DNA of 64,000 bases from Patescibacteria group bacterium (GTDB lineage: Bacteria > Patescibacteriota > JABMPQ01 > JAQVVF01), in assembly GCA_041662665.1 (NCBI GenBank), contig JBAZSC010000003.1, forward strand, positions 143,115 to 207,114. The letters are read 5' to 3'. Below, in pieces: positions 19,386 to 37,494 of the stretch. Position numbers and translations under genes: made by a program. The first letter of the stretch is position 1. Every line of letters begins with the position of its first letter. The notes under the pieces were generated by a model, which saw only the letters and a list, made by a program, of their open reading frames with translations, did not search any database and had not been told where the DNA came from.

Positions 19386-19456
19386 TCCGGGATCGTCTAA
19401 TGGTAGGACAACAGGTTCTGGACCTGTTTATCTTGGTTCGAATCCAGGTCCCGGAG
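19386..19456 (+). tRNA. tRNA-Gln (anticodon CTG)
   Basis: Manual fold: acceptor tccggga/tcccgga, D-stem gtct/ggac with a GG loop, anticodon stem acagg/cctgt with loop ttCTGga, T-arm cttgg-TTCGAAT-ccagg, discriminator G. No CCA is encoded. Confidence 0.85.
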
Positions 19457-29879: not shown

Positions 29880-29887
29880 ATTGAATA

Positions 29888-29966
29888 ATCTGCCTTCGTC
29901 CCTCGCTTTGCGAAGATGAGGGACTTCCTCCTTCGCTACGTTACGGAGGACAAGTCGGCGGACAAA
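29888..29966. repeat. Palindromic element copy 6, composite/nested double element
   Basis: atctgccttcg-gtccctc...gagggac-ttcc-tcctccttcg...ggagga-caagtcggcggacaaag. Two nested hairpins lie inside the family termini. Confidence 0.7.
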
Positions 29967-29969
29967 GAA

Positions 29970-30005: not shown

Positions 30006-30080
30006 AAACATTGACAGATATTTGTTTAAATTGTATTCTTTGTGGTTGGCGTATTTCCCTGGCAAAGGAGGGAGAAGGAA

Positions 30081-30521
30081 ATGGCAGACAAAAAAGATAC
30101 AGGATTTTGTGTGAAAACTTTAGGAGAAGGTAATGATAAAGTATCTTTTATTGCTTGCAGCACTTGTGGTGAGAAAATGTTCGGCGTTCTTTGTGATCAA
30201 TGTGTCGGAAATCATGTTTATTTTATTGGTCATAGTCCAAATTGCACATCTGAATTTGCAAAAGTTGCATCAAAACATGAAGGGCATGCAATTCGGGGGG
30301 AAAAGTCAGAATTAAATGAAATTTGTGTTGATGTAGTAACTAAGGACGGTATTAAGGATTATGTTGTTAAATGTAGAATTTGTGATCAACAGCTTATAGT
30401 TTTTCATTGTGAAAGATGTGATGAAAGAATAATTCATGGACATACTGCTGATTGTGATAGCGAGTCAGCACAGGTTCTAAGAAGACACGATGGTCATCCA
30501 TGTCATGAAGTTACTGGTTAA
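30081..30521 (+). CDS. Cys/His-rich protein with two tandem zinc-ribbon-like modules (novel family)
   Basis: AAGGAGGG Shine-Dalgarno. Two copies of the module C-x2-C...CxxC(D/E)...GH(S/T)xxC...(K/Q)VxxRH(D/E)GH. The terminator at 30539-30562 is identical to the one after 37146..37340. Confidence 0.65.
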   Translation: MADKKDTGFCVKTLGEGNDKVSFIACSTCGEKMFGVLCDQCVGNHVYFIGHSPNCTSEFAKVASKHEGHAIRGEKSELNEICVDVVTKDGIKDYVVKCRICDQQLIVFHCERCDERIIHGHTADCDSESAQVLRRHDGHPCHEVTG

Positions 30522-30538: not shown

Positions 30539-30562
30539 AAACACCTTTTGGTGTTTTTTTTA
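30539..30562. terminator. Bidirectional rho-independent terminator ACACC-TTTT-GGTGT flanked by A/T runs
   Basis: aaacaccttttggtgtttttttt serves the convergent genes 30081..30521 (+) and 30560..31759 (-). The hairpin is identical to 37339-37360. Confidence 0.75.
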
Positions 30563-32824: not shown

Positions 32825-33397
32825 TTATAAAAGATGTCCTAGCAAAATTTTCAAGCCAATACCTATCAAAACAAGTCCACCAATGATTTCAGCTTTTTTG
32901 CCCCATTTTTCGCCGCTTTTTTTGCCAATGTAAATAGAAATCAATGATAATGTGAATGTTGTGATGCCAATAATTGAGACTGATAGCCAAATATTAACAG
33001 GCAGCAAAGCAATTGTTACGCCAATTATTAGAGCATCAATACTAGTTGCAATTGATTGAGTTAATAATATTTTAAGGCTATGAATATCAATTTTTTTCTC
33101 TTCTTCTTTTTTGAAAGATTCAATCAACATTCTGACTCCCAAAATAGTCAGAAGAATAAAAGCAATCCAATGATCAATGCCGGAAATAAATTGCACAAGA
33201 CCAATACCAAGAATATAGCCAATTAATGGCATTAAAAATTGAAAAAAACCAAAAAAGAAAGCTATTCTTAGAGCTTTTTTTGCTCCCATTTGGTGATGAT
33301 GTGCGCCATTTGCAGCTGCAACAGCCATAGCATCAAATGATAGGGCAATAGCAATAAAAAAGATATTTATAAGTGACATATTATTATAATAATACAC
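32825..33397 (-). CDS. mntP: Manganese efflux pump MntP family (DUF204)
   Basis: 190 aa with 6 TM helices. Duplicated LSFDAMAVA / IATSIDALIIG half-motifs. Confidence 0.65.
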   Translation of the reverse strand: MYYYNNMSLINIFFIAIALSFDAMAVAAANGAHHHQMGAKKALRIAFFFGFFQFLMPLIGYILGIGLVQFISGIDHWIAFILLTILGVRMLIESFKKEEEKKIDIHSLKILLTQSIATSIDALIIGVTIALLPVNIWLSVSIIGITTFTLSLISIYIGKKSGEKWGKKAEIIGGLVLIGIGLKILLGHLL

Positions 33398-35773: not shown

Positions 35774-36298
35774 ATGAAAAAGTATTTCATAATGCCAAGT
35801 GAAAAGATAGTCAGTAAAATATATATTATACGCAATAAAAAAGTGATGCTTGATCGTGATTTGGCATTGCTTTATGGCGTGACGACAAAGGTACTAAATC
35901 AAGCTGTTAGACGAAATATTAAACGGTTTCCAGCTGATTTTATGTTTAGATTGGAAAAACTGGAATTTGAAAATTGGAAGTCACAAATTGTGACTTCCAA
36001 TTCTGATAAAATGGGATTAAGAAAATTACCTTTTGCTTTTACTGAACAAGGTGTGGCAATGTTAGCAAGTGTTTTAAAAAGTGATCGAGCAATTCAGGTA
36101 AATATTCAAATTGTTAGAACTTTTATTAAATTGAGAGAACTATTGGCAACAAATGAAGAATTGCAATCTAAGTTAATGAGATTAGAACAGCGTTATGATA
36201 AAAAATTAAAAGAAGTTTTTAATATATTAAGATTATTATTGACAGAAAAAGAAAAACCAAAAGATGAATTGGGGTTTAAATATAAAAGAATAAAATAA
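35774..36298 (+). CDS. ORF6N-domain protein
   Basis: The N-terminal IYIIRNKKVMLDRDLALLYGVTTKVLNQAVRRNIKRFPADFMFRL...SQIVTS...LPFAFTEQGVAMLASVL matches the ORF6N fold. It contains a perfect 27-bp palindrome. Confidence 0.7.
   Translation: MKKYFIMPSEKIVSKIYIIRNKKVMLDRDLALLYGVTTKVLNQAVRRNIKRFPADFMFRLEKLEFENWKSQIVTSNSDKMGLRKLPFAFTEQGVAMLASVLKSDRAIQVNIQIVRTFIKLRELLATNEELQSKLMRLEQRYDKKLKEVFNILRLLLTEKEKPKDELGFKYKRIK
35974..36000. repeat. Perfect 27-bp palindrome TTGGAAGTCACAAATTGTGACTTCCAA inside the ORF6N coding sequence
   Basis: 13-1-13 perfect inverted repeat, sharing the core TCACAAATTGTGA with the upstream site. Encodes NWKSQIVTSN. Confidence 0.8.
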
Positions 36299-36394: not shown

Positions 36395-37162
36395 ATGGAT
36401 ATACAACTGGCAATGACGATGTGGCGATTCCAGGACATTTTCGGAAGATTAAAGAAATGCATACGCTGGGGTGGATATAAGGAAAGGCATTATGAGCAGT
36501 CTTCTTTGGAGCATTCCTTTGCAATTGCACTTTTGACAGCATTTTGTGTAATGAAAGAAAAAGAATTAAAAGGACCAGCTGAAAATTTTGATCCTTTTAG
36601 AATGGTTGTTCATGCATTAGTTCATGATTTTTGTGAAGGAGCGATTGGTGATATTACTTATCGATTCAAAAATGATCCAAGACTTCTATATCTGGTTAAG
36701 TTAATTGAAAAAGAAGAAGGTTTGCGGTCAACAAGACATATATCTTTCATAGGTCCTTTTTTAGCTGAGGCTATTATCTTGGAGCCAGGCAGTCTTGAAG
36801 AAAAATTTTTCGATGCAATGGAAAGATTAGATTATTTTTTTTATGCGCTGGCTGAATATGAAATTCATAAACATTTGGATTTTGTAGCTGTCTTTGATCG
36901 ACAACACGCAAAATTAGTTGAATATGCAAGTGTATTTCCATCAGTTGCTATGATATATAGTCAAGAAGTCCAAGAATATGTTGAAAAGGAAATGAAAACT
37001 AATTGGGGTTTGATTGGTTTGGGTGGAGAGCTTAGACCTCATAAACCATGTCAAAAAGATGTTGAAGATTTGGAAGAAGCGCTGAAGCAATTATTGGCGC
37101 AACTTGCCAAGCAGAGGGAAGCCTCTGGAGAGAAAGGAGGAACAGATGCCAGCACTGTCTGA
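36395..37162 (+). CDS. HD-domain phosphohydrolase (YfbR 5'-deoxynucleotidase-like)
   Basis: LEHSFAIALL (H) ... VHALVHDFCEGAIGDIT (HD...D). AAGGGAGGGAG Shine-Dalgarno, and GC-richer than neighbours. Confidence 0.6.
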   Translation: MDIQLAMTMWRFQDIFGRLKKCIRWGGYKERHYEQSSLEHSFAIALLTAFCVMKEKELKGPAENFDPFRMVVHALVHDFCEGAIGDITYRFKNDPRLLYLVKLIEKEEGLRSTRHISFIGPFLAEAIILEPGSLEEKFFDAMERLDYFFYALAEYEIHKHLDFVAVFDRQHAKLVEYASVFPSVAMIYSQEVQEYVEKEMKTNWGLIGLGGELRPHKPCQKDVEDLEEALKQLLAQLAKQREASGEKGGTDASTV

Positions 37163-37340
37163 AAAAGAACAAGCAAGGATGAAAGCAGAAAAGCAAGAAG
37201 TTTGTACTGAATGTGGGGTACCAACTCATAGGAATTATTGTCGCAGTTGTGATGAATATTTTGAAGATGGTCATACATTAGTTTGTAATGATATGATGGC
37301 ACAAGACGCAAGACGTCATTCAGAATGTCGTACCCATTAA
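37146..37340 (+). CDS. Small zinc-ribbon protein, single-module paralogue of the 30081..30521 product
   Basis: AAAGGAGGA Shine-Dalgarno. Overlaps the upstream stop by 17 nt. Protein CTECGVPTHRNYCRSCDEYFEDGHTLVC...RRHSEC. The ACACC-TTTT-GGTGT-T8 terminator is identical to 30539-30562. Confidence 0.6.
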   Translation: MPALSEKEQARMKAEKQEVCTECGVPTHRNYCRSCDEYFEDGHTLVCNDMMAQDARRHSECRTH

Positions 37341-37365
37341 CACCTTTTTGGTGTTTTTTTATTTT
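37339..37365 (+). terminator. Rho-independent terminator, same hairpin as 30539-30562
   Basis: aacacc-ttttt-ggtgtt followed by tttttttatttt. Confidence 0.75.
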
Positions 37366-37387
37366 ATGATATTATAAAGTGTTAACT

Positions 37388-37448
37388 TGCAGAACTACGC
37401 GGAAATTAAAAATTTTGAAATAAATTTTTAATCGCGGAAAACGCAGAA
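37388..37448. promoter_or_regulatory. 2+2 CGC(G/A)GAA repeats flanking a 28-bp AT palindrome, upstream of glnA
   Basis: tgcagaa, acgcggaa, then attaaaaattttgaaataaatttttaat, then cgcggaa, acgcagaa. Confidence 0.55.
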
Positions 37449-37494
37449 TCTACTTATAAATTTTTTTTAAAATATTTGTAACTTAAAAATAAAT

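Follow-up and report, generated by a model that had tools for sequence, protein, structure and literature searches.

Small structural zinc fingers are familiar as a kind of protein, and new ones turn up regularly. Among the described types, the B-box (PF00643) is a domain of TRIM- and CONSTANS-type proteins with the ligand scheme C-x2-(C/H)-x7-C-x7-C-x2-C-x5-H-x2-H, and the eukaryotic MYND domain has the layout C-x2-C-x7-12-C-x2-C...C/H-x3-C...H-x3-C, in which a helix separates pairs 3 and 4. In the ZZ domain, found in p300/CBP and p62, two Cys pairs are followed by an acidic/aromatic motif, and in p62 the first residue of the ligands is bound by the acidic ZZ residues D129, D147 and D149 (PMC6197226). 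Archaeal Nop10 holds a single zinc in a ribbon that runs on into a Cbf5-binding helix. Here we compare with these systems two genes from a 64,000-nt stretch (hereafter, the window) of a Patescibacteria metagenome-assembled genome (MAG; 31% G+C, 1,248 open reading frames (ORFs) in the window), which encode a 146-aa protein with two copies of a Cys/His module and a 64-aa protein with one (Table 1). Judged from its sequence, this module defines a family that is uncatalogued in every library that we searched. We lean slightly towards a joint description in which the family provides a two-zinc scaffold, the two window genes stem from an old duplication, and the proteins are linked to DNA metabolism, whereas any specific partner or role in conflict seems unlikely to us.

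Both ORFs lie where the initial annotation had placed them, the peptides that it quoted are exact, and so are the strong Shine-Dalgarno sites that it reported 5' of each start codon. They are real genes that NCBI also calls, annotating both as hypothetical proteins (WC663_05390 for the 146-aa protein and WC663_05430 for the 64-aa one), and the identical 146-aa protein is found on three more contigs coming from other samples. The TTGACA of the promoter-like site of the two-module gene and its 5' leader GCGTATTTCCCTGGCAAAGGAGGGAGA are also kept in a relative (locus L019). The one-module gene starts within the last 17 nt of a gene for an HD-domain hydrolase, with which it overlaps. Both ORFs are probably expressed, and their products would be small structural zinc proteins belonging to one undescribed family.

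Table 1. Position of the two zinc-module genes, their putative signals and the genes next to the one-module gene in the window.
Feature	Positions	Strand	Basis or remark
Promoter-like site of two-module gene, TTGACA-17 nt-TATTCT	30011..30039	+	sequence reading
Shine-Dalgarno GGAGG, 9 nt 5' of ATG of two-module gene	30067..30071	+	read directly
Two-module Cys/His protein gene, 146 aa, WC663_05390	30081..30521	+	own promoter-like site and terminator-like hairpin
Repeat unit 1, residues 9-70, predicted beta-hairpin and zinc module	30105..30290	+	HMM E=1.4e-8
Repeat unit 2, residues 81-142, predicted beta-hairpin and zinc module	30321..30506	+	HMM E=5.5e-8
Hairpin ACACC-TTTT-GGTGT then T8, 3' of two-module gene	30541..30562	+	-8.1 kcal/mol, z -3.8
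ORF6N/KilA-N-type gene	35774..36298	+	phage anti-repressor PHROGs, PADLOC PDC-S05
HD-domain hydrolase gene, YfbR-like 5'-deoxynucleotidase family	36395..37162	+	PF12917 E=4.8e-11; HD_3 E=7e-8
Shine-Dalgarno GGAGG within 3' end of HD gene, 5 nt 5' of ATG of one-module gene	37136..37140	+	read directly
One-module Cys/His protein gene, 64 aa, WC663_05430	37146..37340	+	family HMM E=1e-21
Hairpin ACACC-TTTTT-GGTGT then T7, 3' of one-module gene	37340..37361	+	-7.1 kcal/mol

The two window proteins align with each other across the module (BLASTP E=2e-5), and a profile of the module searched against all 1.84 billion cluster representatives at a cut-off of E<=1e-3 matched 51 proteins, mostly of ~65 aa. 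One of them (P0004) has two modules and another (P0045) is an unrelated multi-ribbon protein, the remaining matches being mainly 58-70 aa long. Scans of sequence collections added 9 IMG/VR, 4 genome and 38 metagenome contigs or loci. An exhaustive profile search was needed to retrieve the full family: a word-indexed homologue search returned 9 proteins when started from a 44-sequence alignment, and single proteins as queries retrieved nothing but themselves and one homologue of 75% identity. The diversity of the 44-sequence alignment precluded the design of patterns from it, and no matches came from a scan of genome contigs with a 4-module alignment, from tblastn of one family member against 50,697 GenBank phage records or from scans of IMG/VR for close relatives of both window proteins. 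A literature search found no description of the family. The module had been proposed to be new, and this claim holds, since neither profile searches nor Foldseek assign it with confidence to any known zinc-finger family. Searches of Pfam, NCBIfam, PHROGs, PADLOC and PDB sequences gave no match at threshold, and Foldseek against PDB and BFVD returned nothing at E<=1e-3 and no B-box. In PADLOC, the 146-aa protein has no hit and the 64-aa protein a single one at chance level (PDC-M26B, E=0.0078, 12.1 bits), while PHROGs searched with the family members yielded four single-member hits alone, with E of 1e-3 or weaker.

The consensus of the family reads MPxL, ~14 residues, C-x2-C-x8-(N)YC-R-x-C-D-E-F-F-x2-G-H-x3-C, 8-14 variable residues and H-x2-H-R-T-Y. 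Its members open with MP(L/S/T)L, followed by a short helix, and RTY closes most of them; among 58 short members, 37 begin with MPxL and 25 finish with HRTY. In the family alignment, C20, C23, C32, H43 and C47 are invariant and C35, D36, G42 and H58 are present at 90% or more; the last ligand is His in some members and Cys in others. At six loci (L010, L024, L027, L032, L035 and L048), GH-x3-C is swapped whole for C-x-C; L050 likewise begins FFFVC, but its contig stops there. Such a swap as a unit, together with the His/Cys alternation of the last ligand, is the behaviour expected of metal-ligand pairs. The ligands that we propose are C20, C23, C32, C35, H43, C47, H58 and C61 in the 64-aa protein, C26, C29, C38, C41, H51, C55, H66 and H69 in repeat unit 1 of the 146-aa protein, and C98, C101, C110, C113, H121, C125, H136 and H139 in its repeat unit 2. 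The motif first given for the two proteins captured the Cys/His module that they have in common and needs two corrections: the spacing is C-x5-Q and not C-x6-Q, and the N-terminal module of the 146-aa protein lacks CDE and RRH.

Some members of the family are longer. A C-terminal extension of ~110 aa occurs in two viral contigs of 146-149 kb (L014, 5983-6513, and L016, 5950-6468), in a 1.8-kb metagenome contig (L047) and in P0026, and the member found in one Patescibacteria MAG (L023, 713-1435) may carry an N-terminal extension of ~190 aa. No Pfam domain was detected in the extensions of P0009, P0012, P0040 and P0050, in the 240-aa L023 form or in the 170-aa L014 form, and an impression of SWIB-like repeats in the L023 extension was not borne out by the Pfam scan.

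A hidden Markov model (HMM) of the family built without the window lineage, and searched on the 1,248 window ORFs together with P0004, recognised the 64-aa protein and both modules of the 146-aa protein (E-values in Table 1). No further copy of the module was found among the window ORFs with this model, nor in the six frames of the window. The 64-aa protein has the termini of the family, since it begins with MPAL and finishes with CRTH (CRTY in its 75%-identical homologue). By contrast, the 146-aa protein lacks them, having a beta-hairpin in place of the N-terminal helix and HEVTG as its last residues. By these sequence features, the former is the canonical family member and the latter a divergent, lineage-restricted derivative. 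That the 146-aa protein holds the module twice, as initially proposed, is borne out by the alignment of its halves over 62 residues, including the beta-hairpin segment (BLASTP, 27% identity, E=5e-10). The reading that suits this protein best is that a unit composed of beta-hairpin and zinc module was duplicated in tandem in this lineage, with loss of the MPLL and RTY ends.

The AlphaFold2 (AF2) model of the 64-aa protein, built on the family alignment, reached a mean predicted local distance difference test (pLDDT) score of 73.5, with a core of ~80, and that of the 146-aa protein reached block means of 83-94 at residues 81-140, its N-terminal unit being poor. Both models begin with a short strand, a first knuckle (C-x2-C), a continuous strand of 5-7 residues and a second knuckle at the hairpin turn, and continue with a return strand, G-H...C, a helix and H..H/C. 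In these models the two knuckles lie at opposite ends of an extended hairpin, which would make it impossible for them to share one metal. The return strand would carry GH...C back to knuckle 1 and the helix would carry H..H/C back to knuckle 2; a first zinc ion would be held by knuckle 1 and the GH...C pair, and a second one by knuckle 2 and the H...H/C pair that follows the helix. The modelled secondary structure most likely corresponds to two cross-braced zinc sites of the RING/B-box/ZZ/MYND type. Where the initial annotation had suggested a zinc-ribbon or treble-clef metal site, AF2 favours the two cross-braced sites, and the module is probably better described otherwise than as a simple 'zinc ribbon'. 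Zinc binding itself, the topology of the sites and the function of the proteins are inferred, not shown.

A generic C4 zinc ribbon, comparable to those of Nop10, DUF1610, HVO_2753 or DZR and followed by a His-rich tail, would instead suggest proteins associated with nucleic acids or with the ribosome or RNA polymerase. We consider this improbable, even if the C-x2-C-x8-C-x2-C of the module is collinear with the Nop10 ribbon and identical to it in spacing, one member bears the IMG label 'predicted RNA-binding Zn-ribbon protein (DUF1610)', the NCBIfam Nop10 model matches 2 of 44 members (best E=0.0042) and DZR (PF12773) 20 of the 44. All these matches are below threshold (this applies to Nop10-like, DZR and Zn_ribbon_8 models, with 12.3-21.0 bits for DZR against a threshold of 27.3) and confined to the first four Cys, whereas four more ligands (H43, C47, H58 and H/C61) are invariant or almost so in the family. 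In addition, the AF2 strands keep the knuckles apart, the proteins are neutral to acidic, and neither ribosomal nor transcription genes are recurrent among their neighbours. Nop10, with its one zinc and its helix, has no counterpart of the GH-x3-C...H-x2-H half of the module.

Among the domains with cross-braced sites, the B-box resembles the module in its ~45 residues, its eight Cys/His ligands, the two zinc ions that the models suggest and the shared start C-x2-C-x7/8-(Y/F)C-x2-C; the predicted order of knuckle, hairpin, knuckle and helix in the family would also suit a cross-brace. Weak B-box hits were obtained for 18 of 44 members (E<=10, best E=0.0024), but their 10-18 bits, over profile positions 2-24 of 42, do not reach the gathering score of 24.1 bits, and the B-box is absent from the Pfam hits of either window protein. 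The eight ligands of the family differ from the B-box scheme in spacing and type, pairs 3 and 4 being GH-x3-C and H-x2-(H/C) instead of C-x2-C and H-x2-H, and the family consists of stand-alone prokaryotic or phage proteins with MPLL and RTY ends rather than of a domain within larger proteins. In the ZZ domain, the first two Cys pairs are collinear with those of the module and the motif that follows (CEDYDLC in p300, a sequence confirmed in 6ds6) recalls the CDEFF of the family, whereas pairs 3 and 4 differ in ligand type and spacing; ZZ is outside the 25 Pfam families most often matched by family members. The acidic residues of the p62 ZZ would fall in the motif equivalent to CDEFF; by analogy this suggests peptide recognition, which we take as a lead and not as evidence. 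The MYND layout also resembles that of the family, which is known from bacteria and phage-like contigs whereas MYND is eukaryotic, and a single zf-MYND hit was obtained (E=2.4). Alignment of the family with hhalign gave a probability of 3.3% for ZZ (6ds6 and 1tot; 20 columns, 30% identity) and of 0.6% for MYND (2od1 and 4a24, the ETO and DEAF1 sequences having been confirmed in PDB), and B-box2, its sequence likewise confirmed there, received no support either; these values carry no power to discriminate, as in the controls the known relatives B-box2 and MYND scored 9% and B-box2 and ZZ 0.3% with equally thin profiles. A functional analogue might be YacG, a zinc-stabilised gyrase inhibitor of 65 aa with one C4 site. 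Like YacG, the family proteins are stand-alone and ~65 aa long, and one of them is encoded directly 3' of topA (L021); no sequence similarity between YacG and the family was detected.

The initial annotation took the two window genes for a recently duplicated cassette, a view that their divergence contradicts: the modules are ~35% identical in protein and 58% identical in DNA, and both paralogues exist in relatives whose flanking genes have already diverged to dS values of 0.6-0.9. The nearest relative of the two-module gene (P0004, on locus L019) shares its Band_7/ABC-2 synteny, and that of the one-module gene (P0003, on locus L001) shares the HD/glnA synteny and the identical overlap; both paralogues are therefore older than the split from these relatives. 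They have also evolved much faster than their surroundings. Compared with L019, the two-module gene has a protein identity of 42.5%, a dN of 0.447 and a dN/dS of 0.35, indicative of purifying selection, against 88-93%, 0.04-0.08 and 0.06-0.09, respectively, for the Band_7 and ABC-2 flanks. Compared with L001, the one-module gene has a protein identity of 75%, a dN of 0.143 and a dN/dS of 0.79 (from ~26 substitutions), against 92-99%, 0.006-0.035 and 0.007-0.058 for HD and GlnA. Thus, the dN of the two genes is 4-24 times that of their flanks, yet all the proposed ligands are conserved in both orthologues. The 64-aa gene differs from its flanks also in dS, which is 0.18 in the comparison with L001 (171-365; 64 codons) against 0.61 for HD and 0.81 for glnA; this low dS combined with a high dN could reflect recent recombination, constraint at the nucleotide level or positive selection.

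Small Cys-rich products such as these might also be precursors of ribosomally synthesized and post-translationally modified peptides (RiPPs), other secreted Cys-rich peptides or the translation of spurious ORFs, and a radical-SAM/SPASM maturase model of NCBIfam (TIGR03913) gives a match at E=0.18. We grant this almost no probability, as reading of the sequences reveals no signal or leader-core layout (no predictor was run), no maturase gene is nearby, both genes have strong Shine-Dalgarno sites and one a promoter-like site, the two-module gene is under purifying selection, and the ligands are conserved across 51 clusters. This conservation of the family effectively refutes the idea.

Four matches were found among the contigs of a one-genome-per-species collection (185,579 species), all four in MAGs of Patescibacteria or Saccharibacteria; the pattern used (NYCR[QE]CDE) was narrow and four is a lower bound. 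The genes around family members, scanned with Pfam unless otherwise stated, often belong to DNA repair, replication or nucleotide metabolism. They include DprA and TopA upstream in L021, with ParB- and ParA-like ORFs (by reading, unscanned) on the other side; UvrB and UvrC in L022, which enclose a UvrA-like gene and are preceded by a UDG-like ORF (the last two by eye only); UvrB in L026; DnaG and UvrB in L008; dCMP deaminase and NUDIX genes in L024; endonuclease V and an AlkB-type oxygenase in L052; and an RNase H-like gene in L035. In the window, the HD nucleotidase gene is accompanied by a dUTPase-like ORF (unscanned) two genes downstream. Among phage-like contigs, the start codon of the family gene abuts a primase-helicase gene in L005, in a module with PD-(D/E)XK nuclease, AAA_24 and PolA genes, a holin gene is present in L009, and integrase genes are found in L020 (by Pfam) and L049 (by eye only). 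In L030 (442-2053), the family member is preceded by an ImmA/IrrE-like ORF (by eye, unscanned) and by a gene with a DUF4411 match (PF14367, E=5.8e-24), which might together form a module of the toxin-antitoxin or defence type.

The family proteins are near-neutral to acidic (median net charge -1, pI 6.2), which argues against classical nucleic-acid binding. From this charge, from the fast evolution outside the ligands and from the replication, repair and nucleotide-pool contexts, we infer that they may be protein-binding adaptors or modulators acting on DNA or nucleotide metabolism, neither enzymes nor classical DNA binders. A rigid mini-scaffold would expose variable surfaces, and perhaps also the CDEFF patch and the conserved ends, for contact with another protein, which could be a replication, repair or nucleotide-pool enzyme; in the window, the obvious candidate partner of the 64-aa protein would be the translationally coupled HD nucleotidase. 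Several observations weigh against this adaptor reading and against the two-zinc scaffold on which it builds. There is no universal partner, the biggest cluster of neighbours being present at 4 of 50 loci, and no partner can be named; the DNA-metabolism theme comes from a plain listing of neighbours, in which some loci (L022 and L026) are related; the rapid change of such a small protein may be due to weak constraint; and the dN/dS of the 64-aa gene was estimated from those ~26 substitutions. With regard to the scaffold, hhalign of the first half of the module with the single-zinc ribbon of Nop10 gave 81% over 22 columns and Nop10 sequences in PDB were matched at E of 0.2-0.5, which would fit a ribbon to which a second HCH(H/C) site has been added.

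The neighbourhood of the one-module gene bears on a more specific proposal. The HD protein matches a dATP triphosphohydrolase PHROG (E=5.7e-8) and the H...HD...D residues can be read off its sequence. The ORF6N/KilA-N gene upstream matches PADLOC PDC-S05 (E=1.9e-57) and phage anti-repressor PHROGs (E=5.7e-30), a hint that genes of phage origin or with a part in defence are present; neither zinc-module gene is surrounded by a compositional island and no Rfam family lies nearby. A fast-evolving two-zinc finger limited to CPR (candidate phyla radiation) bacteria and their little-known phages could be an inhibitor or adaptor in a phage-host conflict over DNA and nucleotide metabolism: it would, for instance, control the HD 5'-deoxynucleotidase/dNTPase-like enzyme encoded next to it, the two acting as a toxin/antitoxin-like or defence-like pair, or act on a repair or replication enzyme such as UvrB, TopA or primase, the phage-borne copies would serve as counter-measures, and the ACACC/GGTGT hairpin would be a common post-transcriptional control element. 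The 17-nt overlap with the HD gene, found also in L001, the adjoining PDC-S05 match, the elevated dN, and homologues in early or replication regions of phages, by integrases and by the ImmA-like ORF and the DUF4411 gene are in line with this idea. We nevertheless find it doubtful, because the HD adjacency exists in one lineage out of ~50 loci, PADLOC has no hit for the HD protein and none above chance level for the zinc proteins, and most CPR copies are located among housekeeping repair genes. The HD hydrolase neighbour to which the initial annotation drew attention recurs only in the nearest relative (L001); neither HD nor ORF6N homologues are found near any other family member.

The high Cys/His content could also suggest metal-buffering or chaperone proteins, akin to metallothioneins and tied to the MntP-family manganese exporter gene (32825-33397, minus strand) and the ABC transporters located near the two-module gene. 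This seems very unlikely to us, as the ligand spacing is fixed and structural, not repetitive, and the MntP gene is three genes away, in a linkage checked only on contigs with the identical 146-aa protein. Metal-transport neighbours are absent from the family loci elsewhere and, together with the fixed spacing, this led us to reject a metallothionein.

The initial annotation attributed the same hairpin to both genes. The stem ACACC/GGTGT is indeed shared, but the loops and T-tails differ by one nucleotide and the two hairpins are only near-identical. ACACC-N4/5-GGTGT followed by a T-run occurs at two sites in the whole window, one 3' of each zinc-module gene; it is the sole stem in common among the ~20 terminator-like hairpins of the window, and it is kept 3' of both orthologues in L019 and L001. 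Taken together, these three observations exclude chance. The hairpin is absent from the other family loci, with a lone match in L037 ~3 kb upstream of the zinc-finger ORF. The stop codon of a convergent ABC-2 permease gene overlaps the T-run of the hairpin of the two-module gene, whereas in the one-module gene its own stop codon (TAA) overlaps the stem. Both hairpins fold weakly (Table 1), and a role as terminators is plausible. The presence of the same stem in two old paralogues could be due to selection on the sequence, to gene conversion or to a common 3' control element.

The window contains other elements outside its coding regions. An intergenic repeat, CGC(G/A)GAAAACGCAGAA, which looks like a small REP/MITE-like element, is present six times at <=3 mismatches (15496, 31785 on the minus strand, 34807, 34827 on the minus strand, 37433 and 41961), against 0.24 copies expected, and shuffles never gave 6. 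The copy at 37433 is part of a segment of ~90 nt (37375-37460) that L001 lacks and for which folding gives a long hairpin (-15.8 kcal/mol, z -2.9). A G+C-rich insert of ~85 nt (29885-29968), single-copy in the window and absent from L019, separates the stop codon of the Band_7 gene from the terminator, with which it folds very stably into two hairpins inside an outer closing stem (-51.9 kcal/mol, z -5.4); it has no Rfam match and might represent a small RNA or a structured element that is mobile. Upstream of the MntP gene, neither a yybP-ykoY riboswitch nor any other Rfam hit was found, the sole Rfam hit of the window at gathering threshold being a tRNA (19386-19456).

With respect to the libraries searched, the family is new, as are the signature of its ligands and a distribution that appears to be restricted to CPR bacteria and phage-like contigs. 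Most small proteins of CPR/Patescibacteria and their phages are unannotated, and the family gives a clearly delimited entry among them. If it is true that the family is linked to CPR bacteria, the IMG/VR contigs that carry it could be candidate markers of CPR phages. With its invariant ligands and fast-changing surfaces, the family also offers a tractable case of a minimal metal scaffold that would allow binding specificity to change rapidly.

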